From the NCBI GenBank assembly GCA_963783575.1, contig CAWAOD010000004.1, positions 33,881-97,880 on the forward strand: a stretch of 64,000 nt of DNA, given 5' to 3'. Of the stretch, positions 804-54,154 are shown piece by piece (position 1 is the first letter of the stretch; every line of letters starts with the position of its first letter). The position numbers and the translations under genes are program-made. The notes beneath the pieces were generated by a model, which saw nothing but the letters and a program-made list of their open reading frames with translations, was not told the origin of the DNA and did no database searches. The stretch is from an uncultured Spirochaetota bacterium. GTDB lineage: Bacteria; Spirochaetota; Brevinematia; Brevinematales; JAOACQ01.

Positions 804-1011
804 AATTCCGGCATTTGAGCCGTCTGAAATTATAAAGATATTAGAAAAAAATGGATTTATTCTCGACCGGACAAAAGGGAGCCATCATATTTACTACCAC
901 CCTGAAACTAAAAAGAGGGCAGTGGTACCGTTCCATAAAAAAGACCTGCCAAAAGGAACTTTACTCGAAATTTTAAAACAAGCAGGTTTAGATAAAGAAG
1001 ATTTATTCTAA
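796..1011 (+). CDS. hicA: HicA-family mRNA interferase toxin
   Basis: The ATG at 796 overlaps the hicB stop (ATGTCTAA). The YcfA/HicA-like pattern is KILEKNGFILDRTKGSHHIY...PFHKKDLPKGTL. The ORF-track start at 787 is an upstream TTG. Confidence 0.8.
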   Translation: MSKIPAFEPSEIIKILEKNGFILDRTKGSHHIYYHPETKKRAVVPFHKKDLPKGTLLEILKQAGLDKEDLF

Positions 1012-10262: not shown

Positions 10263-10285
10263 TCTTTAAGAGAGGTTAATAATTT

Positions 10286-10795
10286 ATGACTAAAGAAGTC
10301 TGCGGTTTTGAAATCGGTTTTTTAAAACAGATAAAAGATCTTTTGATAGCCACAAAGATTGAGGAATTGGAGATAGAAGAAGGTCAGAACCGCTATATAA
10401 GGGTTTCCAGAAAAAAATCTAGGGATAGCAATGCGCAGCAGCCCTACCTTCAGTCTGCTCAGGCGGCAATACCTTTAATGAATCCTCCTTCCAACCAGCC
10501 TGTTCAAATAATCACCCCGGCAAAGCAGGTAAATCCTTATGATGATGAAAAAAAGTTTTTCAGAATCAAATCACCTGTTATCGGGACTTTTTACGGCACT
10601 CCCTCACCGGAATCGCCGCCATATGTGAAAGTCGGAGATGTTGTATCTGAAGATACCACAGTCTGCATTGTCGAGGCAATGAAAGTTATGAATGAGATAA
10701 AAGCTGACATTAAAGGCAGGATTGTTGAGATTCTCAAATCAAACGGAAACCCTGTCCAGACAAAAGATCCCCTGTTTATCGTAGAAATAATTTAG
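10286..10795 (+). CDS. accB: Acetyl-CoA carboxylase biotin carboxyl carrier protein
   Basis: 169 aa with a Pro/Gln-rich linker and the biotinyl-lysine motif [12 protein letters not shown] near the C-terminus. Confidence 0.85.
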
Positions 10796-11065
10796 AAAAT
10801 CCATTGAATGCAATGCTTGATATTTCCGGAATTGCAAATCTAATCAGTGTCTTGATTTCTAAATTAACTTATTGTAAAAATACTAAAAATCAATTTATTA
10901 ATTATTGATTTTTTTGTATTTTTACCTGAGGTTAATTATAATTTCTCCTACCGTGACCGAAAAACAATTATTTCTCCAGCCGATAATTCTATTAATCAAT
11001 TTTCTATGATGAGTAATTAATTAAATTCTTGATTTGTAAGATTTCTATTTACAAAAGGAGATTTT

Positions 11066-17000: not shown

Positions 17001-17459
17001 CGGGAAGTATTTGTTAAACCTCAAAATCAGGGCCTGGAAATTAAAAGGCAGTATCTTGATAAAACAGGAAAACCGCTTAATTTGACCGGGGTAGTACAGG
17101 GCGAACTTGCGGTCGTTACTATAACTGTTAAAACTATTAAGCCTCTGGATAATCTGGTAATAGTGGACCTGCTGCCGGCCGGTTTTGAAATAGAAAATCC
17201 CCGTCTGAATTCACGCGGGCAGCTGAATTGGACCCCTCCATATAATTGGAAGGGCGCTTATGAGGACATCCGGGATGACAGATTGCTCCTCTTTACCGGC
17301 GCTTTAAACGGCGAATATTCTTATTCTTATACCGTCAGGGCCGTTACTCCCGGTGAATATATTATTCCACAGGTATACGCGGAGGCAATGTATGATCCTG
17401 AAGTATTTGCCGTTGGAGAAAAACAAGGAAAACTGAATGTTGTCAGGAATAGCCGGTAA
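11066..17459 (+). pseudogene. Alpha-2-macroglobulin-family protein (YfhM-like) with an unusual polytopic N-terminus; one frameshift near 15290-15300
   Basis: ORFs 11066-15331 and 15210-17459 read through each other: ...FNFFYTKR / SLETHLYSIFDSILPD. The thioester motif YPYGCSEQ is at about 16071-16088. A pbpC neighbour follows, which is the classic A2M-PbpC pair. Confidence 0.85.
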
Positions 17460-19800
17460 AATAAAGAGATTTTCACATTATAATTTATTCAAATTGTTAT
17501 GTACAGTACTTTTGATTCCAGTCGGTTTATTTGTTATCTTTATATTTTTGAACATTTTATTCCCTCTTCAGAGGGATCGTCTGGAAAAAGATTTCTCAAT
17601 GGTTTTTACGGACCGTAACGGCAGTCTACTTAGGATTACACTCTCGGAAAGTGAGAAATACAGAATCAAGCTTCCGTTGAAGGATATTTCTCCTTATCTT
17701 GTAAAAGGAATCCTGGAATATGAAGACCGTTATTTTTATTTTCATCCCGGTGTAAATCCCATATCTTTTATGAGGGCGTTCTATCAGAATATTAGTAAGG
17801 GCAGGATTGTATCCGGCGCTTCCACTATTACCATGCAGATTGCCAGAATGCTCTTTAACCGTCCGAGAAACCCGGCATCCAAATTCATTGAAATCTTTAA
17901 TGCGTTTCAATTGGAATTTACATATTCAAAAAAGGAGTTGCTGGAAATATATCTCAATTTGATACCGATGGGAGGAAATATTGAAGGTGTTGGAGCCGCC
18001 TCTTATTTATACTTCGGAAAACCGGCGTATGATCTAAGTTTTTCGGAAGCCTGCATACTGATCGGTTTGCCTAAAAATCCTAATCAAAACCGTCCTGATA
18101 AAAATTATTATAAAATAATAAATTATATCGCGAGAGTGGCTTTGAAAATAGCCGGCCATAACGGCCTGCCGGAACAAATAAATACGGACTGGTTGTTAAA
18201 ATCATCATTCCATTATGTTAATCCCTTCCGTTGTCAGCATCTACTTGAAGCCAAAAAACACAAAAAATCTTCGTTTATCCACCGGATGACAATAGACATG
18301 AATATTCAAAATTTTTGTGAATCTTTACTTCAAAGATTTCATCAGGCTGATTTGAAAAAAGGAATCTATAATGGCGCGATTATCGTTCTGGATAATTATA
18401 CGCATGAAGTTTTAGCCTATGTCGGTTCTCCCGACTATTTTGACTTAACTCATGGCGGACAGGTGAACGGCGCTTGCATTTTACGATCTCCCGGCTCCGC
18501 TTTGAAGCCTTTTATTTATGCGCTGGCAATGGAAAAAGGCCTGGTTACCCCGCAGTCAATAGTTTATGATATCCCGAAAATATATGAAGACCGCTTTTCC
18601 CCGGTAAATTATGATAAAAAAGCCAACGGACTGCTTACTGTCGAAGATGCCCTGATCCATTCCCTTAATATTCCTGCAGTCAGGACTGAAATGGAATTGA
18701 AGAATAATGGGCTTGGTAATTTTTTAAAACAATTGTTCCCCGAAAGACGGGACTTTGTCGACCAGGCCGGATTAACCCTTGCTATCGGAGGCTTTCCAAT
18801 CCGGCTGGAAGAAATCACCATGCTTTATTCAACTCTTGCCAATGGAGGTGAGCTCTACCCTCTCATTTATGAATTGGATGAAAAAACGAATTTAAGCAGT
18901 ATGGGCAGAAATATTCTTGATCCGAGGGCTTGCTATATAATTTCAGAGATTCTTTCTTCTTATCACAGGCCGGATATGCCTTATTCCTGGGACTTCGCCC
19001 CGCATCTGGCGAAAGTGGCATTAAAAACAGGCACTTCTTTTGGCCTCCGGGACGCCTGGTGCATCGGTTATAATAAGAAATACACAATCGGTATCTGGAT
19101 GGGCAATGTAAATGCACAGGGTTCGTCTTATCTTATAGGGGCAGAAATCGCTGCACCGGTTATGATAGGTGTTTTTGATTTCCTTACACGCAATTCCGAT
19201 GCCTGGTTTGAAAAACCTGAAGGCGTCGGGATTCGTAAAGTATGCGCTGTAAGCGGTGAAAAGGCTTCACCTGATTGCAAATATGTAAAGGATGATTATT
19301 ATATTAAAGGAATATCTTCCGAAAAATTATGTTCCATTCATAAGAGGATCTGGATCAGGAAAAAAGACGGGCTGGAAGTCTGTCCTTACTGCATGAATTC
19401 AAATTCTGACCAATACTCCAGTAAAGTCATGGAAGTTTGGCCCATAGAAGCCGTATCATTTCTCCGCTCAACAGGCAGAAAAATCGAGAGGATTCCTCCT
19501 CATAACCCGGACTGTCCGCACATTTCGGCTCAGAACAAACCGCATATTATAAGTATCAGCGAGGGGACCGTTTTTATTATTGACGCTTCCGCTTCCTGTG
19601 AAAATCAGTTAATACCTCTCAAAGTCCAGACGGCTCAGGATGCTGATAAGGTTTTCTGGTTTGCCGGAGGGAAATTCCTGACAAATACCGGACCGGATGA
19701 GACGGTGTTCTATAAACCCGATATCGGAAATATCAAACTATCTGTAATGGATTCCAGGGGAAGAAGCGATAGTGTAACGATTCTTGTAAAGAAGAAATGA
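17437..19800 (+). CDS. pbpC: Penicillin-binding protein 1C (bifunctional transglycosylase/transpeptidase)
   Basis: Transglycosylase motifs EYEDRYFYFHPG and GASTITMQ are present. Transpeptidase motifs are SPGSALKP (SxxK) and KTGTS. A C-terminal PbpC-type domain follows. The gene overlaps the end of the A2M gene. Confidence 0.9.
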   Translation: MLSGIAGKIKRFSHYNLFKLLCTVLLIPVGLFVIFIFLNILFPLQRDRLEKDFSMVFTDRNGSLLRITLSESEKYRIKLPLKDISPYLVKGILEYEDRYFYFHPGVNPISFMRAFYQNISKGRIVSGASTITMQIARMLFNRPRNPASKFIEIFNAFQLEFTYSKKELLEIYLNLIPMGGNIEGVGAASYLYFGKPAYDLSFSEACILIGLPKNPNQNRPDKNYYKIINYIARVALKIAGHNGLPEQINTDWLLKSSFHYVNPFRCQHLLEAKKHKKSSFIHRMTIDMNIQNFCESLLQRFHQADLKKGIYNGAIIVLDNYTHEVLAYVGSPDYFDLTHGGQVNGACILRSPGSALKPFIYALAMEKGLVTPQSIVYDIPKIYEDRFSPVNYDKKANGLLTVEDALIHSLNIPAVRTEMELKNNGLGNFLKQLFPERRDFVDQAGLTLAIGGFPIRLEEITMLYSTLANGGELYPLIYELDEKTNLSSMGRNILDPRACYIISEILSSYHRPDMPYSWDFAPHLAKVALKTGTSFGLRDAWCIGYNKKYTIGIWMGNVNAQGSSYLIGAEIAAPVMIGVFDFLTRNSDAWFEKPEGVGIRKVCAVSGEKASPDCKYVKDDYYIKGISSEKLCSIHKRIWIRKKDGLEVCPYCMNSNSDQYSSKVMEVWPIEAVSFLRSTGRKIERIPPHNPDCPHISAQNKPHIISISEGTVFIIDASASCENQLIPLKVQTAQDADKVFWFAGGKFLTNTGPDETVFYKPDIGNIKLSVMDSRGRSDSVTILVKKK

Positions 19801-21049: not shown

Positions 21050-23743
21050 TTACTTTTTTACCTGGTCTTCTATTACAGCCTGGGCTGCGGCAAGCCTTGC
21101 AATCGGTACCCTGAAAGGAGAGCAGGAAACATAGTTCATTCCGACTCTATGGCAGAATTTGACTGACTTAAGCTCTCCGCCATGTTCTCCGCAGATTCCG
21201 ACTTCAAGATCTTTACGCGTGCTTCTTCCTTTTTCTATGCCCATTTTAACAAGTAGTCCTACGCCGTTTTGATCGAGGGACTGGAAGGGATCATCTTTGA
21301 ATATGCCTGCTTTCTTTTCATCCACATAATCCGGTAAAAATCTTCCGGCATCATCCCTTGACATTCCAAGCGTCATCTGGGTAAGATCGTTTGTCCCGAA
21401 AGAGAAGAATTCGGCTACTTCCGCGATCTGATCGGCAAGAAGAGCTGCCCTTGGAACTTCGATCATTGTTCCGACAAGATATTTTACCTTCTGGCCTGTT
21501 TTCTTAATGATTTCATCGGCAACTTTTCTTGTCCTTTCCTCAAGAATCTTGAGTTCTTTTCTGTCAATCACAAGAGGATGCATAATTTCCGGTTCGACTT
21601 TGATTCCCGCTTTGGCGCATTCGCAAGCGGCTTCAATTATTGCAGTTACCTGCATATCTAGAATTTCAGGGTAGGTAATGCATAATCTGCATCCACGGTG
21701 GCCGAGCATCGGATTTGCTTCGTGGAGCTGTTCGACTCTAAGTTTAACCTTTTCAAAAGGAACGCCGATTTTTTGCGCGAGTTCCCTCTGTTTGGGTTCG
21801 TCATGCGGTACAAACTCATGGAGCGGCGGGTCGATAAGACGAATTGTAACAGGCAGGCCGTCCATTTCCTTGAAAATTCCGCTGAAATCGGCTCTCTGGA
21901 ACGGCAGAAGTTTGGCAAGCGCTTTTTTTCTTTCTTCAACAGTATCTGCCACTATCATCTCCTGGATCGCTTCCCTTCTTTCCTCCGTATCAAAGAACAT
22001 ATGCTCTGTCCTGCAGAGACCTATGCCCTGGGCGCCGAGTTCTCTCGCATGCTTAGCGTCATAAGGAGTATCGGCATTAGTTCGGACTTTGAGCTTTCTG
22101 ACTTCGTCGGCCCAGCTCATCAAAGTATTGTAAGATTCGGGAAGCTGCGGCTTTATAAGTTTCAAAGCCGTCATATATACATCGCCGGACGATCCGTTCA
22201 AAGTTATCTCATCGCCTTCCTTAACTACCTTATCGCCTACTCTGAATAATTTTTTAGTGTAATCTATATCAAGCTTTTCACACCCGACAATACAGCATTT
22301 CCCCCAGCCTCTGGCAACAACAGCGGCGTGCGATGTTTTACCGCCGGTGGCTGTTAAAATACCGGCAGCGGCATGCATTCCGCCAACATCTTCAGGAGAA
22401 GTTTCTTTTCTTACAAGTATGACCTTTTCTCCTCTTTCCGCCCACTCTTCAGCGTCTTTAGCATTAAATACAACTCTGCCAGAAGCGGCGCCCGGTACCG
22501 CGTCGATCCCCTGTACAAGGAAGTTCTTTTTTAAAGCTTCTTTCTGTGACGGGTCGATTACAGGGTAGAATATGCCTTCGATATCTTTATCCTTGATTCT
22601 CATGATAGCCTGTTCTTTTGTTATCAGGCTTTCTTTTACCATATCAACAGCGATCTTGAAAGCCGCAAACGGAGACCTTTTACCGGTCCGGCACTGAAGC
22701 ATATAGAGCTTTCCTTCTTCCACTGTAAACTCAAGGTCCTGCATTTCTTTATAGTGGTGCTCAAGGGTTTTTCTCACTTCAACAAGCTGCTTGTAAGCCT
22801 TGGCATCGGCTTTTTCGAAATCCGAAAGCTTAATTGGAGTCCGGATACCTGCAACGACATCCTCGCCCTGGGCGTTTATCAGATAATCGCCGTAGAATAC
22901 ATTGTCTCCGCTGTTCGGATCTCTTGTAAAGCAGACCCCGGTGCCGGAAGTGTCGCCCATATTGCCGAAGACCATCTGCACAACATTTACTGCGGTTCCG
23001 ATTACGCCCTGGATTTTTTCAACTTTTCTGTAAGTCACAGCCTTATCGGCCATCCATGAACCGAAAACAGCGCCGATTGCCCCCCAGAGCTGTTCTTTCG
23101 GATCTTGGGGAAAATCTTTCCCGATTTCCTTTTTATAAAGATCTTTAAAGACCTTTATCAATTCCTGAAGCTCTTCCGCGTCGACATCGGTATCGTTCAC
23201 TTTCTTATCTGCGGAAAAATTCAGTCTTTTCCTGGTTTTGTCATTTTTAATCTTATCGAATGCATGATCGAATTTCTCGCGTTCGATCCCCATCGCTGTT
23301 GAACCGTACATCATAATGAATCTTCTGTACGCATCCATTGCAAACCGCTTATTGCCTGTCTTTTTTGCAAGGCCTTCAACGGATTTGTCGGTTAAACCGA
23401 GATTGAGGATGGTTTCCATCATACCCGGCATGGAAATGGGAGCGCCTGAACGGACAGAAACAAGCAGGGGATCGTTCGGATCTCCGAGCTTTTTAGCGAC
23501 AACTTTTTCAAGCCTTGCAAGATGTTCTTCCACTTCTTTGTCAAGACCTTCCGGATATTTTTTGCCGTTTTTATAAAATAAATCGCAAACTTCCGTGGTA
23601 ATGGTGAATCCACCCGGAACCGGAAGTCCGATAGCCGTCATTTCGGCAAGCCCAGCTCCTTTCCCGCCCAGAAGCTCCTTCATTGCGCCGTCACCTTCGG
23701 CTTTTCCACCGCCGAAGAAATAGACATACTTACTCTTTGACAT
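21050..23743 (-). CDS. ppdK: Pyruvate, phosphate dikinase
   Basis: 897 aa. It contains the N-terminal GGKGAGLAEM ATP-grasp motif, the phospho-histidine motif GGKTSHAAVVARGWG and the C-terminal PEP-utilising motif GICGEHGG. Confidence 0.95.
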   Translation of the reverse strand: MSKSKYVYFFGGGKAEGDGAMKELLGGKGAGLAEMTAIGLPVPGGFTITTEVCDLFYKNGKKYPEGLDKEVEEHLARLEKVVAKKLGDPNDPLLVSVRSGAPISMPGMMETILNLGLTDKSVEGLAKKTGNKRFAMDAYRRFIMMYGSTAMGIEREKFDHAFDKIKNDKTRKRLNFSADKKVNDTDVDAEELQELIKVFKDLYKKEIGKDFPQDPKEQLWGAIGAVFGSWMADKAVTYRKVEKIQGVIGTAVNVVQMVFGNMGDTSGTGVCFTRDPNSGDNVFYGDYLINAQGEDVVAGIRTPIKLSDFEKADAKAYKQLVEVRKTLEHHYKEMQDLEFTVEEGKLYMLQCRTGKRSPFAAFKIAVDMVKESLITKEQAIMRIKDKDIEGIFYPVIDPSQKEALKKNFLVQGIDAVPGAASGRVVFNAKDAEEWAERGEKVILVRKETSPEDVGGMHAAAGILTATGGKTSHAAVVARGWGKCCIVGCEKLDIDYTKKLFRVGDKVVKEGDEITLNGSSGDVYMTALKLIKPQLPESYNTLMSWADEVRKLKVRTNADTPYDAKHARELGAQGIGLCRTEHMFFDTEERREAIQEMIVADTVEERKKALAKLLPFQRADFSGIFKEMDGLPVTIRLIDPPLHEFVPHDEPKQRELAQKIGVPFEKVKLRVEQLHEANPMLGHRGCRLCITYPEILDMQVTAIIEAACECAKAGIKVEPEIMHPLVIDRKELKILEERTRKVADEIIKKTGQKVKYLVGTMIEVPRAALLADQIAEVAEFFSFGTNDLTQMTLGMSRDDAGRFLPDYVDEKKAGIFKDDPFQSLDQNGVGLLVKMGIEKGRSTRKDLEVGICGEHGGELKSVKFCHRVGMNYVSCSPFRVPIARLAAAQAVIEDQVKK

Positions 23744-23883: not shown

Positions 23884-24261
23884 TCAGTCAATAAAATCAA
23901 CACTTTTAAGCATAGGATAATGTTTTTTATTAAGTGTCCACAATTTTAAATTATTAATTATAGCGGCGGAACAGATTATTGCGTCTAAAATAGTTACATT
24001 ATGAGATTTTGAAAATTGATTTACAAAATAACCCGCAGTTTCTCCGATATTTTTATCTATTCCGATACAGTTTAAAGAATCAATAAAAATGGATGTTTTT
24101 ATCTTTTCATTTTCCCGTATGCCGGCGAATATCTCAGAAATCTGGACAGGAGTAATGAATAGTAATCCGTTAGCATCCAAAACAATCTGCTTAAACCTTT
24201 TTATAATTTTTTCATTACCTCTAAAAATCCATATTAAAATATCGGTGTCGATCATTATCAT
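23884..24261 (-). CDS. vapC: PIN-domain toxin VapC
   Basis: 125 aa beginning MIMIDTDILIW (the first PIN acidic residue), with later conserved D/E positions. It shows a 4-nt ATGA overlap with the upstream small gene. Confidence 0.8.
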   Translation of the reverse strand: MIMIDTDILIWIFRGNEKIIKRFKQIVLDANGLLFITPVQISEIFAGIRENEKIKTSIFIDSLNCIGIDKNIGETAGYFVNQFSKSHNVTILDAIICSAAIINNLKLWTLNKKHYPMLKSVDFID

Positions 24262-24491
24262 ATTGTCCTATCCCGCCTTTTGTCTTCAATATATTCATTG
24301 ACATTGAAATCAAGATCTTTCCAGATGCCTGAAACTTCATCAACATTTTTTATGATGTCTTCAATTTTTAATTTCATTTTACCCTTTAAACTTTCCCTGA
24401 TTAATTCTGAAATCGATTTTTTTTCTATTTCACTTTCCTTTTCTAGATATTCATAAGTCGCTTCATCTATATATATCTGGGTTCTTTTCAT
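24258..24491 (-). CDS. vapB: Ribbon-helix-helix antitoxin (VapB/CopG-like)
   Basis: 77 aa with an RTQIYIDEATYEYLEKESE RHH-type N-terminus. It is translationally coupled to vapC. Confidence 0.7.
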   Translation of the reverse strand: MKRTQIYIDEATYEYLEKESEIEKKSISELIRESLKGKMKLKIEDIIKNVDEVSGIWKDLDFNVNEYIEDKRRDRTI

Positions 24492-26659: not shown

Positions 26660-27671
26660 ATGGAAATTGTTAAAGTTATTGGAATAATTATTTCGTTTAT
26701 TGCAGGCTTAATACTGGTTATTCTCGGCTGTACTTCCGTCTGGAATATTATTGAATTTAAAAAATGGCATTCTCAACCTGCAGCGACCGGAAAAATTATT
26801 AATTCGGGAGACCTTTTACTTTATATAAGAATAAAAGGAATTGGCAGCCCGGCTGTTGTCATAGTTCCGGGGCTTGGGAACTCCTCAACCGAATGGTGGA
26901 AAATCCAGGATGAATTGTCAAAATTTACCAGAGTCTTTACATATGACCGCTCAGGTTATGGCTTGAGCTGCGCAATTCCAGATAATGGCGTTCAAATTAC
27001 AGCTAAGATAAGGGCAGAGGAACGTACATGCCCTGTTAAGCAATGCAGGGATTCAATCTCCTTATATTCTGGCCGGCCATTCATACGGAGGATTGATTAT
27101 TGCTGAATTTGCGGCCATGTACCCGGGAGAAACCGCCGGGGTGGTTCTTGTTGATGCCGTTCCGGCGGGGAATAATAAATTTAAGGAGAAAATCAATGCC
27201 GGGGTTTATCGTTCATTTGTTGATAAAACATCTATGATAAAAATAATGAATATAGCCGGGCAACTGGGTTTAATCAGATTATTCCAGCTTGTTCCTTATA
27301 ATCTTCCCACTGATTTAAGGCAGGCCGTAGTTGAACATTTATCATCCCCTTATCTGGCAGGTACAGTTTTAAATGAAAATGAGAATCTTGGAAAAAGCAT
27401 TTCCGAATTCAAGAAAATAAGGAATAACTTCCCGGATGTCCCATTACAGGTTATATGCAGGACGCCGGAAATATCAGTTGAATGGATGACAAATAAAGGA
27501 ATTTCTTATGAAGAAGCCGTTAAAGTCGAAAATTTGTGGCAGGATTTGTCAAAGGATTACCTGAAACTTTCAACTAAAAGCAAATGGATATTGGCTGAAA
27601 AATCAGGACATTCGATTCATCTTGACAGGCCGGAGATTGTGATTGATGCTATTAAGGAATTAATTCGCTGA
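26660..27671 (+). pseudogene. Alpha/beta-fold hydrolase, split by one frameshift near 27012-27022
   Basis: The N-terminal part reads VVIVPGLGNSSTEWW...YDRSGYGLS. The nucleophile elbow ILAGHSYGGLIIAEF is readable only in the frame of ORF 27093-27671, which opens after a TAA at 27008-27010. Confidence 0.75.
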
Positions 27672-30181: not shown

Positions 30182-31281
30182 ATGAAAATATTATCACTCC
30201 TGATTATTCCCATGTTTTTATTGCTTTTCATTTGCCAATGGGCAAATGGAGAAGAGTCCGGACTTTTTCAATTAAAAGACTATCTTAGCAACACCCGTTA
30301 TCCCCAGGATTACTGGCAGATTTCAACTCCCGAAATCCTGGGTTTGAAAGCCGGCAAATTAATGAAAGCGGTTGAATTTATTGAAAATTATGAGTATGAG
30401 ATTCACAGTTTTCTGATTGTAAAAAAGGGTGTCTTATATTTGAGCGATACGGGCATAATATAAAAGATAAGCATCAAATTGAACCCTTTGAAAGGCATAC
30501 CTTATATTCCACAACGAAAAGTTTTATCTCCTGCCTTATCGGTTTTGCGATACAGGAAAAATATATTTCAGGTGTGAATGATAAGATGATAACTTATTTT
30601 AATAATATTCCTGTTGAAAATATGTCGGCAAGAAAATCGAATATAACCATAGCCGATTTACTGACAATGAGAAGCGGATATGACTGGCATGACTCCGCCG
30701 GCAGCGATCCTGTCTTTTCTTCTGCAAATCCGGTCTCCCAGTTATTAAACAGGTCTATGATAGCGGAGCCGGGAACACAATGGAATTATGATACCGGAAG
30801 CTGCCACATATTGTCGGCAATATTGTCAAGAACAACCGGGAAAAGCGCGCTTGAATACGCAAATCAAAAATTGTTCATGTCTCTTGGAATAACCAATATA
30901 GCCTGGGATGCCGATAAAACCGGCCTTAATTTCGGCGGGTTCGGTCTTGAGCTGACTCCAAGGGATATGGCTAAATTCGGCTATCTTTACCTGAAAAAAG
31001 GAAAATGGAATGGGGTACAACTCATTTCGGAGGAATGGATAAACGATTCCACAAAGGTTTATTCCGATACTTACTGGCCGTCAATGGGCAAATACGGATA
31101 CCTTTTCTGGATTCCGGACTCGAGATTTTATTGTACAAGCGGGCTTTACGGCCAGAAGATTTACATTTTTCCGGGGCTGGATATGGTTGTGGTTTTCACT
31201 GCCAATCTTCCTGTCGCAATTGCCGAAGATACGCTGAATAATATTGTATTGAATTTCATACTTCCGGCTGCTGAGAATTAA
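30182..31281 (+). pseudogene. Beta-lactamase-family serine hydrolase, split by a frameshift at an A-run (about 30420-30426)
   Basis: The signal peptide and N-terminus are in frame 2 up to IVKKG. Frame 1 continues KKGCLIFERYGHN...LYSTTKSFISCLIG (SxxK motif) into ORF 30574-31281. Confidence 0.75.
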
Positions 31282-31343: not shown

Positions 31344-33428
31344 TTATTTCTTATATCTTTTTAATATTTTTTTAAATTCATCCCTGTTTTTGTATTTTTC
31401 ATAAACCATATCCGTTTCTAAAAAATTCTCAATAGGATAGCCTTTCTTTAATGCTGTTTCAATATTCTTATAAAATCCCTTATCATTATCCATATCACCG
31501 TATATTTCCGCGAGAGAGCCGTAAGCATAAGAGTAATCCGGGTTAAATTCGATCGCTTTCTGCACATCAGCAATTGCGAGGTCAAACTTTTTTATTGATC
31601 GATAAACATTCCCACGGTTATTATATACTAATGAATAATTAGGGTTCAACTCGATTGCTTTATTATAGTCGTTAATTGCTTTTCCATATTCTTTTTGATA
31701 GTAATAAGCAACCCCTCGGCTATTATAGGCATCCGAATAATTAGGATTCAGTTCGATTGCTTTACTATAGTCATTTATAGCTTTTTTATATTCCTTTTGA
31801 TCTGAATAAACAAGCCCGCGATTATGATAGGCTAATAATAAATCCGGATTTAGTTGGATCGCTCTGTTATAATCATTTATAGCTTTTTCATATTCCTTTT
31901 GATCGTAATATGCAACCCCGCGATTATGATAGGCCTCCGAATAATCCGGTTTCAATCCGATTGCATTATTATAATCATTTATTGCTTTTTCGTAATCAAT
32001 TTGAGCGGAATAAACAAGTCCGCGATTATGATAGGCTAAAGAATAAGCCGGATTCAGTTCGATAGCTTTATTATAATCGTTTATTGCTTTTTCATATTCC
32101 TTTTGATCGTAATATGCAACCCCGCGGTTATTATAGGCATCCGAATAATCCGGTTTCAGTTCGATTGCTTTACTATACCATTCGATTATTTCTTTAGGAT
32201 TTTTGCTGTCATAAGCCTTATTAAACCAATCAAGGGCGGTAAGATAACTATTGAATTTATTTTTATCATGATCTGAAATGACGGGTGAAGACTGAACGGT
32301 TGCTTTATTGAAATTATCAATATACCTTTTTGTTTTTTCCTCAAATTGCTTTGCTTCTTCGGATAATTTTTCAGTATCACACTGGTATTTATTCCATAAT
32401 TTGAAAATAAAAGTATCGAAATTCTCTATTTTTACAATAAAACTATTTTTTGTATTGTTGATCAGGTTTACAACACGCCAGTTCATGGAATTGATATCCA
32501 TAGCGCACCAGTATAAACAGAAATGCCGGTCCTTTTTCTTTTTTTCCAGGATATTCATAATAGAATAATCCGAACCGTTATACCCGATGACAACAAGCCC
32601 CAGTTTTTCCAGGGCTTCGTTAAATTTGGTTTCCATATTTTTATCCAGGGACTGCGTTTCATTATTTATATTTTTGATGTTTTCAAATAAATAATCGCCG
32701 TGGAGCTTGATTATATTCGGTTTGTCATCCTCGATATTGATGTATTTCGCGGTCTCATTATGGGAATAGACCCGGGGTTTTTTATGCGTATAGAACAAAA
32801 GGGCGTCATTTATCAGATCGTCAAAATTGGTCGTAAAAATATTTTTCACAACGCCCTTTTTAACGATATTCGCGAATAGAATGTAAGCTCCCTGGGGTTC
32901 TTTCTTTTCTATCAGCCGCTCGATAAACTTCTGCCGCTCCCTTTCATCCTCTGAGTATTCCTCGAACCAGAAACCGTAAAGACTATCCGAATAAATATGA
33001 TCTTTTAAATCATCCCATAATTTTTGATTGTCCGAATATTCATTTTTGATCGATTCGGGAATTTTATTTATATAACTGATTTTATCTTCTTCCATTTTTG
33101 CTTTAAAGTGATCTTCTTTTTCATTAATAAATTTTTCATAATCTTTTTGGCGGGAATCATCTTTCTGAAGGTAAGTGTCGATTAATTTTATTATTTCAGA
33201 TATACTATCCGCTTCATTGCTGTTTAAGTCCGTCCTGCTTTTCGCGAAACAGTTCTTTTTTATTATTTCTATAATCCCCCCGCCGGATGGAATTTCCGAA
33301 CTGATTGAAGAACCTGCTCCTAAAAATAGCGAGAATTTCGAGAGATTTTTTTCGATTTTTATACCCATTTCATTCAGCAAGACAGCTTCATCTTTAATTT
33401 TTTCATTATTGATTTCAAATTTTTTCAT
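31344..33428 (-). CDS. SIR2-like (SIR2_2-type) domain protein fused to a TPR array
   Basis: 694 aa. N-terminal motifs are FSLFLGAGSSISSEIPSG, IFTTNFDDLINDA, IIKLHGD and VVIGYNGSDYSI. The C-terminal ~270 aa are at least eight 34-aa TPRs (AYNNRGVAYYDQKEYEKAINDYNKAIELNP...). Confidence 0.8.
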   Translation of the reverse strand: MKKFEINNEKIKDEAVLLNEMGIKIEKNLSKFSLFLGAGSSISSEIPSGGGIIEIIKKNCFAKSRTDLNSNEADSISEIIKLIDTYLQKDDSRQKDYEKFINEKEDHFKAKMEEDKISYINKIPESIKNEYSDNQKLWDDLKDHIYSDSLYGFWFEEYSEDERERQKFIERLIEKKEPQGAYILFANIVKKGVVKNIFTTNFDDLINDALLFYTHKKPRVYSHNETAKYINIEDDKPNIIKLHGDYLFENIKNINNETQSLDKNMETKFNEALEKLGLVVIGYNGSDYSIMNILEKKKKDRHFCLYWCAMDINSMNWRVVNLINNTKNSFIVKIENFDTFIFKLWNKYQCDTEKLSEEAKQFEEKTKRYIDNFNKATVQSSPVISDHDKNKFNSYLTALDWFNKAYDSKNPKEIIEWYSKAIELKPDYSDAYNNRGVAYYDQKEYEKAINDYNKAIELNPAYSLAYHNRGLVYSAQIDYEKAINDYNNAIGLKPDYSEAYHNRGVAYYDQKEYEKAINDYNRAIQLNPDLLLAYHNRGLVYSDQKEYKKAINDYSKAIELNPNYSDAYNSRGVAYYYQKEYGKAINDYNKAIELNPNYSLVYNNRGNVYRSIKKFDLAIADVQKAIEFNPDYSYAYGSLAEIYGDMDNDKGFYKNIETALKKGYPIENFLETDMVYEKYKNRDEFKKILKRYKK

Positions 33429-33454
33429 ATATTTATTCCTGTCCTGAATTTTTC

Positions 33455-34018
33455 TTACATTTTTTCTTTCCAGATCGGCGTTCCCCTCGGTGTCTTGCTC
33501 AAATAATGTGTCTCAAGAAAAGTAATGCCTCCCTGTATTGCCGGCATTATCTTTTCAATCCTGGCAAGCCTTTCCTCCGAGTCGAAAGCCCAGTCGCTGT
33601 CAGGATATTCGCTTAATACCCTCTGAAAAACATGATTTAGCGGCATCCAGGTTCATTTTCTTTTTTGTTAGCGTTTCCATATCGAAAAGAACCTGGTTAA
33701 ATTTGAGAGAAATGGAACCATTGTATTTATTGAAATAATCAACCCCTCTTTTATAGATTGTGTAATCGTCTTCAGCAGGCTGTGATTTATATTCCTCAGG
33801 CTTAACCTGTTTTCCTGACTTTTTCTGGCGTTCCTTAGTGGACAGAATTGCCTGATAAGCCTCATTAATATGGGCCATTTCACTTTCCTTTGACAATTTC
33901 TCTTTATTATCAGTAAACAAATCTGGATGATTTTCTTTTGCCAGTTTTCTATAGGCTTTCTTAATTTCAACCGTTGATGCTTCCGGCCCAATCCTAAAAT
34001 CCTATAATATTCATCCAT
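33455..34018 (-). pseudogene. Second J-domain protein, broken by two frameshifts
   Basis: The ATG at 34018 overlaps the upstream gene's stop (ATGGATGA). The J-domain MDEYYRILGLG / PEASTVEIKKAYRKLAKENHPD is readable across a 1-nt shift at the GGGCC run (33985-33990). A second frame change lies within 33600-33646. Confidence 0.65.
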
Positions 34019-34919
34019 AAGACCTCTCGTTATTCTTAAAATATGAATAGGTATTATTATCGTCATGAATTGCTGTCATTTTTCCCGCCATGATTCCATG
34101 GATGCACCCGATATTATGCATGGCAAAATTTAGAGCCTCAAAAATACAATCTATCTTTCTAATTCCGAATTCGGGAAGAAGCTGCATAATACTCTCCAGG
34201 GAAGTGCTGTTCATAAATTTATCCATCCTCTTCCGGATATTATAGAAATAATCCCTTAGCCCGACAAAAGGCCTGTGTTCCAAATTTTCCGGCTTAAGCG
34301 AGATATTTTTAATATATTCTTCAAAGCCTGCTCCTTTAAGGTTCCTTGCCGACAAAAAATAATCGGGGAAACCTGAGGGTGCGAGCACCCATTTATCAAT
34401 AAAAATCAGGATGTCAAGGACATAACGCCACAACTGCTTTCCGCTGTATTCTTTTTCCCAGCCGTCAAAACTTTTATGATCTACCAGGCCCCTTCTTCCG
34501 GGGGTTCTGTATTCGTTGATTTTCTGAAGTGTCGCTCCCGAAATGCGAAGAAAATCCTCAATTTCCCATAGAATAAAATTCAGTTGTGCGAAGATTCTAT
34601 TCAAGGATCCGTAATTTATACCTTCTTTGCCGGGAAGAGCAGAATGGATTTTCAGTCCGCCCGGGGCGGTTTTTGATTGCCGGTTATTCAGAACACTGCT
34701 GTTTCTTAAATAGGTATTATATTCTTCTCTTTTTTCAGGATCGGAGAGAATGCTGTAAGCCTGATAAAGGATTATGAATTTTGCTTCCGATTCGGGGGAA
34801 TTATTGTTTTTATCGGGATGATGTATTAATGCCAGCCTTCGGAAAGCCGTTTTGATTTCTTCAACGGATGCCTCTTCGCAAACATCCAGTATTTCATAAA
34901 ATGATATATAAGCAGACAT
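34011..34919 (-). CDS. J-domain protein with an uncharacterised ~230-aa C-terminal domain
   Basis: From the ATG at 34919 the translation reads MSAYISFYEILDVCEEASVEEIKTAFRRLALIHHPDKNN (HPD motif). The ORF-track start at 34985 is an upstream TTG. Confidence 0.8.
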   Translation of the reverse strand: MSAYISFYEILDVCEEASVEEIKTAFRRLALIHHPDKNNNSPESEAKFIILYQAYSILSDPEKREEYNTYLRNSSVLNNRQSKTAPGGLKIHSALPGKEGINYGSLNRIFAQLNFILWEIEDFLRISGATLQKINEYRTPGRRGLVDHKSFDGWEKEYSGKQLWRYVLDILIFIDKWVLAPSGFPDYFLSARNLKGAGFEEYIKNISLKPENLEHRPFVGLRDYFYNIRKRMDKFMNSTSLESIMQLLPEFGIRKIDCIFEALNFAMHNIGCIHGIMAGKMTAIHDDNNTYSYFKNNERSYG

Positions 34920-36527: not shown

Positions 36528-38414
36528 ATGAAATTAGAAATTTTTGTAGAAACATTCCTTTGTATAATAATTTTATTATCGATATTGTCATGCGGACACA
36601 AGCCGGCTGTTAAAGGGGAAAATCCCATATCAGAGGAAAAATCAAATATTGAGACAAATGTGGGATATCCTGTATCGGAAGAATATTTAAATATTGAAAC
36701 AAACAATATCTTCACTACCGAAGAAACCGTTGTACTCTCGAATAAAACTAAGGTATTGATACTTCCGTTTGACAACAGGTCGGATCAGTCGAAGTATCCA
36801 AACGCTAAAATAGTAAATACTATTATAATGAGTGAATTATACGCATTTCTATACATCGTGCCTTCTTTCGACGTTCCTGAAAAAACTGAACTGGCCGCTC
36901 TGAATTCCGAATTTTTAAACCGGAAAGATATAAAACCGCAGGATATTTACAGTAACTATCAGGCGGATATTATTATTTTCGGTAATTATGGCCTAAATGG
37001 CAGTAAAACAGATCCAACGGCGCAAATACGGCTTAATATATGGAATAAAGCGTCTGGAAAGATTGATACTCATGAATATAATACACCCATTGACGCAGAT
37101 ATTTTTGACGCAATAGATGCTATGCTCTCCCAGATTATCAGTTTAACGCTTAATGAAGAAGTTAAAATCTCATATCTCAATATCGGAAATTTCAAAATAG
37201 GAAACGGATCTTATTCACTTACGATCAATAATAAACCAGCGGCAAAAATAACAAATGATAATTTTTCACTGAATCTTAAAATATTACCGAATGCGATTTA
37301 TTCGATAAGGTTAAGAAATACCGCGGATAACAAAAATGTTTTAAACAATCAGGTTATGTTAAAGCCCGGTGAAACGACAAATATTAGTTATACCGCGGCT
37401 TTCGCTGAAGATAACTTGTATGACGTAGTTACAAACGGCAATATAGCGTTTATCAAATATTACCGCGATGATATTAACAAGCCCCTTGATATTAATGGCA
37501 ACACGGCTTTGATTTTAGCGATCTATGGCGGAGATATGAACATGATTAAAGTCTTGATCGAGGCTAAGGCCGATGTCAACACAGCAGACAAAGATGGCGT
37601 AACAGCTTTGATGTGGGCGGCCATTAAAAGCCGATCGGATGCGGTCAAAGCATTGATCGAAGCTAAAGCCGGCCTCAACGCCGCTGATAAAGACGGCTGG
37701 ACGGCTTTGATGTGGGCGGCTAGAAAATACAATGAGAGTGTGATGGAAGCATTAATCGAAGCTAAAGCCGACCTCAACGCTATAGATATAAACGGATATA
37801 CGGCTTTATCATATGCGGCCAGGGATGGCGATACTAATGTGGTTAAAATATTGATTGAGGCAAAGGCCGATCTCAACACCTTGACTAAAAATAATGAAAC
37901 GGCTTTGATGCTTGCCGCCCAAAATGGGCATACTGATGTAGTTAAAGCATTGATCGAGGCAATGGCTGATCTAAACAAGGGGGATAATAATGGCTGGACG
38001 GCTTTGATGTGGGCAGCCCAAAATAGGCACACAGATATAGTCAAAGCATTGATCGAAGCAAAGACCGATGTTAACAAAGAGGATAATAATGGCTGGACGG
38101 TTTTGATGTATTCGGCTAATTCCACTATCACAGGACTTTTAAGAGCAGCCGGGGCGAAACAGACCATATTCGGTGCTGCTGCAATAGGTGATATAGATTT
38201 TATCAAAAATTACTCGGGAGATGTTAATTCTGTGAATAAAAACGGCATTACGGCTTTGATGTGGGCCACCCAAAACGGTCATACGGAAGCGGTTAAAAAA
38301 TTGATTGCGGCCGGTGCCAATGTTAATGCTGTTGATTCAAAGGGAGATACGGCTTTGTCGCTTACTAAAGATGCCTCCATCATCAATCTTTTAAAAAAGG
38401 CTGGAGCGAAGTAA
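36528..38414 (+). CDS. Lipoprotein with a CsgG/LpoB-like N-terminal domain and about 9 ankyrin repeats
   Basis: Lipobox LSILSCG. The N-terminal region reads KVLILPFDNRSD...ADIIIFGNYG...IRLNIWNKASGKI. The C-terminus has repeated GxTALMWAA...VKALIEAKADLN 33-aa units. Confidence 0.85.
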   Translation: MKLEIFVETFLCIIILLSILSCGHKPAVKGENPISEEKSNIETNVGYPVSEEYLNIETNNIFTTEETVVLSNKTKVLILPFDNRSDQSKYPNAKIVNTIIMSELYAFLYIVPSFDVPEKTELAALNSEFLNRKDIKPQDIYSNYQADIIIFGNYGLNGSKTDPTAQIRLNIWNKASGKIDTHEYNTPIDADIFDAIDAMLSQIISLTLNEEVKISYLNIGNFKIGNGSYSLTINNKPAAKITNDNFSLNLKILPNAIYSIRLRNTADNKNVLNNQVMLKPGETTNISYTAAFAEDNLYDVVTNGNIAFIKYYRDDINKPLDINGNTALILAIYGGDMNMIKVLIEAKADVNTADKDGVTALMWAAIKSRSDAVKALIEAKAGLNAADKDGWTALMWAARKYNESVMEALIEAKADLNAIDINGYTALSYAARDGDTNVVKILIEAKADLNTLTKNNETALMLAAQNGHTDVVKALIEAMADLNKGDNNGWTALMWAAQNRHTDIVKALIEAKTDVNKEDNNGWTVLMYSANSTITGLLRAAGAKQTIFGAAAIGDIDFIKNYSGDVNSVNKNGITALMWATQNGHTEAVKKLIAAGANVNAVDSKGDTALSLTKDASIINLLKKAGAK

Positions 38415-45475: not shown

Positions 45476-46734
45476 ATATTCCCCTCATTAAATACCTCGA
45501 CGGGGTTGATTTTATATGTAAGATAAACTGGATACCAGGCCGATAAAAACATAATAATAAGTATGATTATATAGGAATAGATTGAAGCTGAAAGCGATGC
45601 GTTAAAATAAAAATTCCCCCCGGCAAAACCTGGCCTTAATACTCCCGGGTTCAATCCGGAACTGAAAATAAGTGATAAAACCCAATAAATTATTATTGAT
45701 AAAATATAGCAAACGCTGGAAAAAAGAAACATTTCGCAAAGTAACAGCAGATTTATCCATAATGGTTTGGCCCCGATGGAATACATAGTACCGATTTCTT
45801 TCTGCCTCTCGAAAAATGACATCATATTAAGATTAAATGTTGAAACAAACAGAATTATTATAACCACAATGCAGATAAAAACCCCTATAATACCGATAAA
45901 ACTCGCAAACCCTTCGATTAAGCTGAAAGAATTTTCCGCGTTAAAAAAAGTTAAATGATATTTATCAGACATCTTTTGAAGATTAATTTTATTTTGCCGG
46001 TCATTATCCCATACGCAAACCTCAATGCTTTCACCTTCGTTTAAACCTAATTTCCCGGAAAGATATGAGTAGGGAACTAAAAAAATGGGGAATACGGGGT
46101 CCCACCCTCTTTTTCCTTCCGTCTCCGAGTCTTTCACTGTTTCAAGGAGTCCGGTAATGATAAAAGTATATGGATATGAATTATTATCAACATCTTTAAT
46201 AAACAATGATACTTCCCAGCCAACCCTGAGGTTTAGTTTGTCCGCCGAGTCTTTCCAGACAAGGATCCCATTTTCAACCGCCGGATCGTATTTCCCTGAA
46301 GAAATTACTAAATTTGTTATATTTTTCAATTCTTTAGCTATGTCGCAGCCAATTACCGTCTGCGGCTTAAAGGTGGAAAACTGCTGATTATCAAAATCAT
46401 AAATTATTCCGCCCAGGCGGATCCTTTTTGAGTAATTCATGCGATGAGAATCAAGATAATTATAAATTTCCGGGGGAATAAGCTTACTGGGATAATTTAT
46501 CCCGGTAAGCGTGTAATCTTTTGAACGCTGATCATGAGTTGTAATATTATAAACGCCCGTAAAAGTCCTTGAAATATAAGACCTCCATGATTGTACCGAG
46601 AGGCTCCTAAAATTATCGCTGAACAGGATCAAATCAATCGTTAGAATAAGAATGATACCAATTAAGATATTCTTTGTTTTATGACGCAGGATGTTTCTAA
46701 AGGCCAATTTAAAGACATAGTAAACGGATCTCAT
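45472..46734 (-). CDS. ABC transporter permease, FtsX/MacB-type
   Basis: 420 aa beginning LAFRNILRHKTKN, with the same topology. The ERQKEIGTMYSIGA motif is typical of FtsX-like permeases. Confidence 0.8.
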   Translation of the reverse strand: MRSVYYVFKLAFRNILRHKTKNILIGIILILTIDLILFSDNFRSLSVQSWRSYISRTFTGVYNITTHDQRSKDYTLTGINYPSKLIPPEIYNYLDSHRMNYSKRIRLGGIIYDFDNQQFSTFKPQTVIGCDIAKELKNITNLVISSGKYDPAVENGILVWKDSADKLNLRVGWEVSLFIKDVDNNSYPYTFIITGLLETVKDSETEGKRGWDPVFPIFLVPYSYLSGKLGLNEGESIEVCVWDNDRQNKINLQKMSDKYHLTFFNAENSFSLIEGFASFIGIIGVFICIVVIIILFVSTFNLNMMSFFERQKEIGTMYSIGAKPLWINLLLLCEMFLFSSVCYILSIIIYWVLSLIFSSGLNPGVLRPGFAGGNFYFNASLSASIYSYIIILIIMFLSAWYPVYLTYKINPVEVFNEGNI

Positions 46735-46804
46735 TTTTATACTCCAATGTTATATAACGTTATGAGCAAACTCACTCCTTGATAAGGAGGGGGATTAATT
46801 TTCT

Positions 46805-47477
46805 TTAACTTACAATCGCACCGTCCTTAAGCCTGTAAAGATTTGTGGCGTATTGAGTTATCGAGGGATCATGAGTCGAAAAAATAAATGTAACATTTTC
46901 TTCATGATTTAGTTTTTTCATTGTTTCCAAAATAGATGTTGCCGTTCCGGAATCGAGATTTGCTGTTGGCTCATCGGCTAGTATCACCTCAGGTTTTGTA
47001 ACTAGGGGCTCTTGCAATCGCAACCCTTTGTCTCTGTCCCCCTGAAAGCTCATCTGGCCTTTGCCGGATATGTTTTTCAAGCCCCACTTCCTCAATAGCT
47101 TTCATAATACGGTTTTTCTTTTCGGCGTTGCTCAAATTCTGTCCTTTGATATAAAGAGGAAACTCGATATTTTCATAGATGTTAAGGACAGGAATAAGGT
47201 TAAACGACTGGAAAATGAAGCCGATTCTATTGATCCTTAAGTCAGCAAGCTTATTCCTGTTTAAAGAAACCACGTTATCATCGTCAAAATAAACCTCTCC
47301 ATAGTCCGGTTTATCCAGGCAGCCTATTATATTAAGCAATGTGCTTTTTCCGCTGCCCGATGGTCCCATAACGCAGACAAATTCTCCTTTTTCGACATTT
47401 AAAGAAACATCTTTCAACGCATTTATCTCCACTTTTCCCAATTGGTACTTTTTGCTTATATTTTTAACCTTGATCAT
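46805..47477 (-). pseudogene. ABC transporter ATP-binding protein (LolD/MacB-type), frameshifted in a C-run
   Basis: Walker A is GPSGSGKST and the signature is [14 protein letters not shown]. The frame is then lost at GCCCCT (plus-strand G-run near 47004-47008). The expected continuation LVTKPEVILADEPTANLD is found in ORF 46805-47095. Confidence 0.8.
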
Positions 47478-53502: not shown

Positions 53503-53603
53503 CATTTATATCGAAAAAAAATCCGGTTTTATTTTAATATTTTAAATTCCGATAATAAATTGACATAATTAATAAATAGTAGCAAAATATCATTGTAATT
53601 ATA

Positions 53604-54096
53604 AAGCAGGCTGGAAAAACGCCTTTCACTATTTTGTTGCGCTGATCTATGATGCTGGCAAAATGGTGAGGGGAGGAAAGTCCGGGCATCAAAAAGCATC
53701 GGGCCGGTTAATAGCCGGGCAGTAAATCTGCCTCCGTAAGCGGCAGGAAATGCTGACGGATAGCGCCACAGAAAACAAACTGCCCCTTACCATTTTATTA
53801 GCTTCACCTTTGTAAGCTCACAAAGTGGTAAGGGGTGAGGGTGAAAAGGCGGTGTAAGAGACCACCGCGGAACGCATAAGCGGACCGGCAAGGCAAGCCC
53901 CCCGTGATGCAAGGCTGAATAGGCATTCCATACTACCGCTTGTAGTAATCCATGGATAAGAATGCGGGTAAGCCGCTGGATATGTTTTATAAAAAACATA
54001 CAAGATGGATGTTTTTCGTCCTTTGATTTTTTGCCAATTTCTTTTAATTAGAGTGACAGAAGTCAAGGAAACAGGACCCGGCTTACAGGCCTGCCT
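53604..54096 (+). ncRNA. rnpB: RNase P RNA (bacterial type A), unusually long
   Basis: Universally conserved segments are present: GAGGAAAGTCCGGGC (about 53672-53686), GGTAAGGGGTGAGGGTGAAAAGGCGGTGTAAGAGACCACCGC, GCAAGGCTGAATAGG and ACAGGACCCGGCTTA (54071-54085). P1 pairing of GCAGGC (53606-53611) with GCCTGC (54089-54094) sets the ends. Confidence 0.85.
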
Positions 54097-54154
54097 TATT
54101 TTCTAAATTAATGTTTCCTGTTGCTTCGGGCTAAGGCTCTTAAGAAGGTGAAAA

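Follow-up and report, generated by a model that had tools for sequence, protein, structure and literature searches.

Three consecutive genes on the minus strand of a 64,000-nt stretch of DNA from an uncultured Spirochaetota bacterium (contig CAWAOD010000004.1; the whole stretch is called the window below) were analysed here. The first two, J1 and J2, encode J-domain proteins, and the third, SIR2-TPR, encodes a SIR2-family module followed by an array of tetratricopeptide repeats (TPRs). The reading that we favour is that SIR2-TPR acts as a stand-alone, TPR-gated NADase, i.e. a sensor and an effector combined in a single protein, and we give this mechanism a probability of roughly 0.55–0.6. Its position directly behind J1 and J2 is probably a chance, lineage-specific juxtaposition of two unrelated units, and we hold with high confidence that its function does not need the two J-proteins. 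J1 and J2 themselves are most likely a specialised J-domain co-chaperone pair of a Brevinematales-like (Spirochaetota) lineage. An earlier note on this DNA had suggested that the three genes may be a single module, in which DnaK-recruiting adaptors are coupled to a SIR2 effector; the gene neighbourhoods described below argue against that proposal. Judged by homology, J1, J2 and SIR2-TPR are real genes and not chance open reading frames (ORFs), because each has dozens to hundreds of homologues.

The SIR2-TPR gene starts 26 nt past the J2 stop codon and encodes 694 amino acids (aa), as the earlier note had it, and the 26-nt gap holds an AGGA-type ribosome-binding site. The SIR2_2-type hallmarks listed in that note are all present: the motifs FLGAGSS, TTNFDD, KLHGD and GYNGSD are found in the N-terminal half, together with a Pfam SIR2_2 match at 5.3e-12, above the gathering cut-off. 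The C-terminal half matches TPR families at E-values down to 2.7e-66 (TPR_1). An AlphaFold2 model built with 80 homologues (mean predicted local distance difference test score, pLDDT, of 93.7) presents a SIR2 domain of Rossmann type that bears a helical insert, a single linker helix, eight TPR hairpins made up of 16 helices, and a short cap, in agreement with the previous count of at least eight TPRs. At the DNA level the array is a 102-nt tandem repeat with 77–81% matches (periods 102 and 204 in Tandem Repeats Finder). In Foldseek searches, the TPR half has as its best match a designed eight-repeat consensus TPR protein (37–40% identity), and the best non-TPR match of SIR2-TPR is the SIR2-APAZ chain of SPARSA (8y80_E, 3.2e-10). 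The same relatives head the profile search of the PDB (SPARSA SIR2-APAZ entries 8in8 and 8jkz at 1.6e-33, followed by the KomC SIR2 NADase at 3.8e-12) and the PADLOC search, in which Aga_SIR2, associated with prokaryotic Argonautes (pAgo), comes at 3.4e-54 and the candidate PDC-S65 at 1.8e-30. The Pfam and PADLOC searches, which the earlier note had suggested as a check, found DnaJ, SIR2_2 and TPR in the three proteins, and the PADLOC matches were limited to the SIR2 part, which aligned alone. SIR2-TPR has the GAG loop and the Asn/His pair of SIR2_2/SIRim proteins, and its model matches the SPARSA SIR2 fold; by sequence and fold, it is probably an NADase-type protein of this branch.

The search for homologues of SIR2-TPR returned 363 matches, and among the 120 best listed most are 540–700 aa long with both SIR2_2 and TPR. 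For these homologues the presence of TPRs was read from precomputed Pfam domains; a custom TPR hidden Markov model (HMM) under-counts them. In the family alignment A5 (80 members of 537–702 aa), the window protein has 29–57% full-length identity to the 79 homologues, and the closest among the homologues, P0051, has 57–60% identity. N201 (of TTNFDD) and D245 are invariant in A5 and in the smaller alignment A1 (15 sequences), whereas G37, G39 and H243 (of KLHGD) do not vary in A1 and reach at least 90% conservation in A5. A SIR2 domain devoid of its catalytic Asn/His, which the earlier note had seen as a danger to its NADase reading, is thus not what this family presents, since the Asn is kept in 80/80 aligned proteins and the His in at least 90%. 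Another danger it named, a conserved housekeeping deacylase, does not fit well either, the family being patchy and context-variable. The SIR2 core is far more conserved than the TPR array: mean identity to the window protein is 0.45–0.51 for the former and 0.25 for the latter, 21% of whose columns are gaps. Other members of the same SIR2 clade have different C-terminal regions without a Pfam match, or none; the SIR2 module is therefore a cassette that is combined with various C-terminal parts. SPARSA-type SIR2 proteins of a large sister group (L044-L088 and L172-L213, ~560–920 aa), also with C-terminal regions that match no Pfam family, are common in Proteobacteria and on viral contigs; only their SIR2 part matches the PADLOC models for pAgo-associated SIR2 and PDC-S65.

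Source names in the SIR2_2 + TPR family include Bacteroidota, Ignavibacteria, Chloroflexota, Spirosoma, Pinibacter and archaea. A 555-aa SIR2_2 + TPR protein is encoded in the accessory region of the Haloferax pleolipovirus provirus Halfgib1 (MW344766.1, L214 2062-3729), between integrase and winged helix-turn-helix (wHTH) genes on one side and a Dcm methylase gene on the other, and looks as if the virus carried its own copy of this architecture. The viral contigs of IMG/VR contain 42 members of the SIR2 clade that are more distant, and further ones are plasmid-borne. Because of the patchy distribution and the one proviral member, the family looks horizontally mobile. In the literature, TPR-labelled SIR2_2 proteins are tips in a published sirtuin tree (PMC12700824), and we found no paper using the terms 'SIR2-TPR' or 'TPR-SIR2'; 'PDC-S65' occurs in none of the papers listed by our search. 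By its sequence, SIR2-TPR is thus a member of a SIR2_2 + TPR family that is catalogued and, in the searchable literature, uncharacterised. This large and scattered family would be a simple, single-protein candidate for immunity by NAD+ depletion, with a near-consensus TPR superhelix as its sensor.

No partner gene accompanies the family. The 115 nearest neighbours (two per side) of 34 members match 157 Pfam families, none of which occurs in more than five neighbours, so that SIR2-TPR has no conserved partner gene; a HerA-type gene is not a recurrent neighbour in this set either. About 10 of the 115 match defence models strongly, as a raw count without background control: among them are AriA (twice), GajB, a reverse transcriptase of the DRT type, Old, SduA, type II restriction and modification enzymes, DpdF and PsyrT. 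Integrases, ParE, AbiEii-type and toxin-antitoxin genes are found as further neighbours. Taken together, neighbours from mobile elements and defence systems, the patchy spread and a conserved effector joined to a variable sensor look like the pattern of a stand-alone abortive-infection effector. In the window itself no pAgo, HerA, TIR, STAND NTPase or Hsp70 gene was detected over the 64 kb, in line with the earlier observation that the first four are missing nearby. A hidden pAgo, HerA, TIR or STAND partner was considered and rejected, as no window protein gave a match.

The link between SIR2-TPR and the J genes can be followed from both sides. On the J1 side, 26 J1-family loci were available, 18 of them from a metagenome scan with a J1 alignment; at least 2 kb of sequence was present downstream in 11/26 and upstream in 12/26. 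No SIR2 relative was found by tblastn in any of these 26 loci. The five loci of three J2 homologues contain no SIR2 gene within up to 10 kb, only the J2-J1 pair. On the SIR2 side, sampling one genome per GTDB species gave 185 relatives; the 80 loci retained, with flanks of up to 10 kb, add up to 1.35 Mb. This sequence was scanned with a custom J-domain HMM made from 162 J-domains, which recovers every control J1 and J2 and both window genes, including the broken J2. A single J-domain ORF was found, and none of the 80 SIR2 relatives has an adjacent J gene. The lone ORF is DjlA-like, with a C-terminal J-domain; it is not on the strand of the SIR2 gene, and its distance from that gene is two genes or 4 kb. 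A genome has a few J genes, and on this rough estimate one J-domain ORF in 1.35 Mb is about the chance level for ordinary J-proteins.

The relatives nearest to SIR2-TPR have other neighbours. P0052 is flanked by a BrnT/BrnA toxin-antitoxin pair, a helix-turn-helix (HTH) repressor and a DUF3150 gene, in a small, variable islet between dnaX-recR and prfA-prmC; P0055 is found with amidohydrolase and CN-hydrolase genes; P0053 (54% identity, SIR2 only) lies between ORFs resembling the C-terminus of a biotin ligase (BirA-like) and a quinolinate synthase (NadA-like), which were named from reading their translations; and P0051 has no usable flank. A second J-J-SIR2-TPR arrangement was not found among the 26 J1, 5 J2 and 80 SIR2 loci. 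The earlier note had staked its module on synteny in other genomes and on a neighbourhood survey of the J1 C-terminal domain. In that survey no co-occurrence with SIR2-TPR was seen in the 26 loci, and in none of the loci examined are the homologues of the three genes syntenic.

How could SIR2-TPR work on its own? The TPR superhelix, in which eight repeats make one full turn, would bind a protein or peptide that is either foreign (from a phage) or exposed under stress. This binding may relieve an autoinhibition of the SIR2 module or drive its oligomerisation, whereupon the module would hydrolyse NAD+ via Asn201 and His243 and the infected cell would be arrested. We infer the activity, the trigger and the role in defence from the analogy with DSR2, SPARSA and Avs5. 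A different function would be that of a regulatory enzyme (a protein deacylase, an ADP-ribosyltransferase or an enzyme of NAD-linked signalling) whose TPR array recruits an endogenous substrate, the adjacency to the J genes again being due to chance. The window context, which is ordinary chromosomal DNA and not a defence island, is compatible with such an enzyme, and so are the homologues that sit among metabolic or housekeeping genes (those beside amidohydrolase and CN-hydrolase genes or, by reading of translations, BirA-like and NadA-like ones) and the generic scaffold nature of consensus-like TPR arrays. However, the SIR2_2/SIRim branch lacks the zinc module of deacetylating sirtuins and its characterised bacterial members are NADases (PMC12700824). 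The nearest relatives of SIR2-TPR are pAgo-associated SIR2 NADases, and the patchy phyletic distribution, the proviral members and the defence genes near some members do not suit a regulatory enzyme well. We therefore regard a regulatory role as unlikely.

Several points weigh against reading SIR2-TPR as a defence effector independent of its neighbours. Its immediate neighbourhood in the window is not a defence island and consists of hydrolases, a TetR gene, an ankyrin lipoprotein and an SDR gene. The defence association of the homologue neighbourhoods is a matter of raw counts without a background, and the literature provided no enzymatic or phage data for any SIR2-TPR protein. With a GC content of 33.1%, the gene is not a compositional outlier, as it lies about one standard deviation (SD) below the mean of the window genes (37.5 +/- 4.1%). 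Recent transfer of the SIR2-TPR gene was considered on this basis, and base composition gives no sign of it, even if the value is 33.1% for SIR2-TPR versus 39.7% for J1 and 38.7% for J2. In the window J1 precedes J2, whereas J2 comes first in the other loci where the two are paired. Moreover, the packing of the three genes is operon-like, with an overlap of 8 nt and a gap of 26 nt, and the terminator scan revealed no terminator-like minus-strand site between them. The counts from the promoter and terminator scans are at the level of shuffled sequence. From the packing, the three genes are a probable transcription unit in this genome; their co-expression here is likely, and there may be a lineage-specific functional link. 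Nevertheless, tight packing in one genome is weak evidence of a functional module, because in all other places where these genes can be examined they stand independently of each other's unit.

It follows that a functional defence or stress module, in which J1 and J2 would bring in DnaK for gating or loading of the TPR-SIR2 effector, or in a variant a guard system set off when the chaperone network is hijacked by phage proteins, is very improbable. Besides the packing without an intervening terminator, it can draw on the ability of eukaryotic TPR domains to bind Hsp70 tails (the fold matches include structures of Tom71-Ssa1 and Tom70) and on the precedent of bNACHT25, a chaperone-dependent bacterial immune sensor that needs the host DnaJ (PMC12169576). 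Yet bNACHT25 relies on a housekeeping DnaJ and not on a dedicated neighbouring J gene, an adjacent partner is found in 0/26 J1, 0/5 J2 and 0/80 SIR2 loci, both gene sets are complete and conserved separately, the J1 C-terminal domain family has a single architecture without a SIR2 link, and J2 is frame-broken in the window. Similarly improbable is that, in this Brevinematales-like lineage, a mobile SIR2-TPR effector was captured into the J1-J2 operon as a chaperone-guarding NADase. Its TPR array would read the state of DnaK and the J-proteins, e.g. through contact with the C-terminus of DnaK, the helical domain of J1 or the conserved tail of J2; if true, it would be a SIR2 counterpart of the DnaJ-dependent bNACHT25 sensor.

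The proteins encoded upstream of SIR2-TPR deserve attention in their own right. J1 has the canonical J-domain that the earlier note described (Pfam DnaJ, E 1.4e-22, residues 7-68, with the HPD tripeptide at residues 34-36). The J-domain occupies residues 1-75 and is followed by a family-specific, all-helical C-domain (residues ~105-300). No motif had been recognised in this part before, and indeed the C-terminal ~220 aa have no match in Pfam, NCBIfam or PADLOC. The AlphaFold2 model of J1 (pLDDT 83.6, predicted template modelling score, pTM, 0.83) gave matches in a Foldseek search of the PDB via the J-domain only, and none for the C-domain. A word-indexed search found 42 full-length J1 homologues of 244-323 aa, whose source names indicate Spirochaetota ('Spirochaetales bacterium'); the 'CbpA' names given to J1 homologues by the Joint Genome Institute (JGI) depend on the J-domain alone. 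An exhaustive HMMER search of 1.84 billion proteins with the C-domain alone found 106 representatives, the longest at most 315 aa. Matches of ~190–315 aa have the C-domain after a J-domain-sized N-terminus, shorter ones are fragment-like, and none of the 106 shows another fusion or architecture or a link to SIR2. Conserved motifs of the C-domain are NFLLWDIEDFLR, FIDKWVL.PAGF.DYF.EAR, DYFYNIRKRMDKF and IDCIFE.

The J2 start codon overlaps the J1 stop over 8 nt (ATGGATGA), in agreement with the coordinates reported previously. J2 is read across three reading-frame segments (three-frame translation), and both of the 1-nt frame changes claimed for this second J-domain gene could be located (Table 1); once they are repaired, a 187-aa protein results. 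Repaired J2 matches NCBIfam DnaJ_bact at 1.2e-13 and OM_YfiO at 2.3e-5, with HPD at residues 31-33; the unrepaired ORF still matches our custom J-domain HMM at 2.8e-20. Fourteen intact homologues (P0171-P0180 among them) of 164–216 aa were aligned with repaired J2 from end to end, and one of them is named from a Brevinematales metagenome-assembled genome (MAG). All 15 alignment-invariant residues (15/15) are kept in repaired J2, across all three frame segments and without any other lesion, and the C-terminal tail TPRGTPIWKEKM is aligned through in 9/14 homologues. Programmed frameshifting was rejected, the homologues being plain single-frame ORFs. The frameshifts may be assembly errors rather than marks of a pseudogene, because at least four other genes of the window are broken likewise, and the balance leans modestly to this side. 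That J2 is a true pseudogene, inactivated not long ago in a genome gathering insertion sequence (IS) copies and broken genes, is a tentative alternative a little below even odds. It would account for two independent frame changes in 564 nt, which exceed a uniform error rate of ~1 per 10 kb; the window's two IS copies, which have diverged, and its further broken genes also speak for it. On the other hand, each change concerns one base within a short homopolymer, each segment still encodes family-invariant residues without other lesion, and at least four other window genes have the same type of single break. The split-gene pattern is also found in related long-read metagenome contigs, and the break pattern is typical of uncorrected long-read consensus sequence.

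The other broken genes and the IS copies are as follows. An alpha-2-macroglobulin (A2M) gene on the plus strand has a frame change near 15.2-15.3 kb that leaves overlapping ORFs (11066-15331 and 15210-17459), and is followed by a PbpC-like transglycosylase gene (17437-19800) in a classical A2M-PbpC pair. Single frame changes beside short homopolymers are seen in an alpha/beta hydrolase gene at 26660-27671 (+), near 27.0 kb, and in an ABC-transporter ATPase gene at ~46734-47477 (-), in the latter at ~47.0 kb. The gene for a beta-lactamase-family serine hydrolase that adjoins SIR2-TPR, at 30182-31281 (+), also has such a frame change, near 30.42 kb, with its SxxK motif in the shifted frame. The two IS copies, at 4058-5783 (+) and 62049-63774 (-), are inverted and ~1.73 kb long, and each codes for a DDE_Tnp_1_6 transposase of 501 aa. 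Compared as a gauge of the assembly's indel error rate, they differ by 45 substitutions and 0 indels (97.5% identity; 15 aa differences), from which no such rate can be drawn.

J1 and J2 are J-domain (Hsp40, PF00226) proteins, with a Pfam or NCBIfam match and the HPD tripeptide in each; the domain that defines this class has four helices in about 70 aa, and its HPD sits between helices II and III. Neither has a match to PF00684 or PF01556, and they are thus not type I/II DnaJ/CbpA proteins; their scores against the NCBIfam DnaJ and CbpA models are 30–74 bits versus cut-offs of 338–619, with coverage of the J-domain only. Like type III J-proteins (e.g. DjlA and CbpA-like annotations), they have an HPD J-domain without the G/F, zinc-finger and DnaJ C-terminal domains. 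They differ from these in the J1 C-domain, for which neither the Pfam and NCBIfam models nor the PDB fold library gave a match. The J2 gene is directly followed by a J1-family gene in L004/L005, L006 and L007/L008, with spacings from a 1-nt overlap to a 17-nt gap. In the long loci, which are Brevinematales-like contigs, the J pair is found at about 10001-11400. In L006 and L007 it lies just downstream of PPDK, a gene that in the window is 10 kb off, at 21050-23743. Two J1 homologues of about 48–51% identity (P0002 and P0011) stand alone with unrelated genes around.

That the genes are translationally coupled wherever they are paired (four lineages) suggests that J1 and J2 act together. An HPD J-domain stimulates the ATPase of DnaK. 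With their intact HPD, J1 and J2 would both do so, each with its own small client- or localisation-domain, and as type III J-proteins they may deliver a specialised client or location to DnaK. We know of no operon of two J-protein genes among described systems, and this coupled J-domain gene pair in Brevinematales-like bacteria is a minor curiosity of chaperone biology.

Table 1. Positions of the three genes and of their parts in the window.
Feature	Position	Strand	Remarks
J1	34011..34919	-	Type-III J-domain protein, 302 aa; ATG 34919, TGA 34013-34011
J2	33455..34018	-	J-domain and short BamD/YfiO-like, TPR-like helical domain; 187 aa once repaired
J2 frame change 1	33985..33990 (approx.)	-	1-nt deletion in GGG/CC run, between codons 11 and 12
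J2 frame change 2	33626..33630	-	1-nt insertion in T5 run (A5 on the plus strand), ~codon 131
SIR2-TPR	31344..33428	-	694 aa; starts 26 nt past the J2 stop
SIR2_2 (SIRim) module, predicted catalytic	32379..33338	-	Residues ~31-350; helical insert 63-148
Predicted catalytic sites of the SIR2 module	Asn201 at 32826-32828; His243 at 32700-32702	-	GAG loop G37-G39
TPR array	31446..32273	-	Eight hairpins, residues ~386-661; then C-terminal cap 662-694

The window is clearly chromosomal, because it contains RNase P RNA, a class I Glu/Gln-type aminoacyl-tRNA synthetase gene, PPDK and the A2M-PbpC pair. The RNase P RNA is of class A (53603-54101 (+), 259 bits), and its 499-nt match against a 367-position model points to insertions. 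Genes around the three studied here encode a SpoIIE-type phosphatase, hydrolases, DUF2846 and DUF1761 proteins, the beta-lactamase-family hydrolase, a TetR regulator, small membrane proteins, an ankyrin lipoprotein, an SDR protein and an MBL-DinB protein. The predicted lipoprotein (36528-38414 (+), 628 aa) has a long ankyrin-repeat array (Ank_2, 4.4e-63); an array of this length seems uncommon in bacteria. Two toxin-antitoxin-like pairs were recognised from reading the sequence only, a HicB/HicA-like one at 570-1011 (+) and a VapB/VapC (PIN)-like one at 23884-24491 (-).

Among known systems, SPARSA (short pAgo + SIR2-APAZ; 8in8, 8jkz, 8y80) has the SIR2 module closest to that of SIR2-TPR by profile, PADLOC and fold, with a GAG loop, Asn and His, and a helical insert in common. 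In contrast to the SPARSA protein, SIR2-TPR has no APAZ and has the TPR array as its C-terminal half, the PADLOC alignment covering positions 73-316 of 1010, and no pAgo match was found among the 50 other window proteins. As the TPR array replaces the APAZ half, nucleic-acid-guided activation cannot apply to SIR2-TPR. The PADLOC candidate PDC-S65, a single-gene SIR2 system, shares the SIR2 core (E 1.8e-30), but only positions 118-318 of 592 are aligned and the C-terminal part differs, so SIR2-TPR is not a full-length member. Thoeris ThsA combines SIR2 with a sensor of the SLOG/STALD or Macro type and is encoded next to the TIR protein ThsB; no ThsA match was found in SIR2-TPR and no TIR gene in the window. 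Likewise, the window has no HerA-type match that would make SIR2-TPR part of a SIR2-HerA system, and no PADLOC model of HerA systems matches SIR2-TPR itself.

In Avs5/SIR2-STAND, in eukaryotic SIRim-NLR and in SAMD9-type proteins, a SIR2/SIRim effector and TPR-type repeats are combined in one protein, as in SIR2-TPR (PMC12931631; for eukaryotic SIRim-NLR with TPR, 10.1101/2024.09.18.613514). Unlike Avs/STAND proteins, which have a central STAND/NACHT NTPase, SIR2-TPR has a linker of ~45 residues with a single helix, the SIR2 module ending at ~350 and the TPRs starting at ~386, and no NTPase Pfam match was found in it. The role of a J-protein in bacterial immunity has a parallel in bNACHT25, an immune sensor that requires the housekeeping DnaJ in order to fire, and this is the only such documented case that we found (PMC12169576). 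It differs in that it concerns a housekeeping DnaJ and a NACHT protein without genomic linkage and without SIR2 or TPR.

With DSR2 and DSR1, SIR2-TPR shares the arrangement of a single polypeptide with an N-terminal SIR2 and C-terminal alpha-helical repeats. The repeat region of DSR2 is reported to bind the phage tail tube protein, which turns NAD+ hydrolysis on (PMC11850899, PMC11263360). SIR2-TPR is shorter than these proteins (694 versus ~1000 aa), its repeats are canonical 34-residue TPRs whereas DSR2 has a MID/CTD solenoid, its SIR2 belongs to the pAgo-associated clade, and no PADLOC DSR model matches it at E <= 0.01. By analogy, SIR2-TPR would work most like the DSR2-type single-protein sirtuin defences, with a catalytic module that is closest to that of SPARSA.

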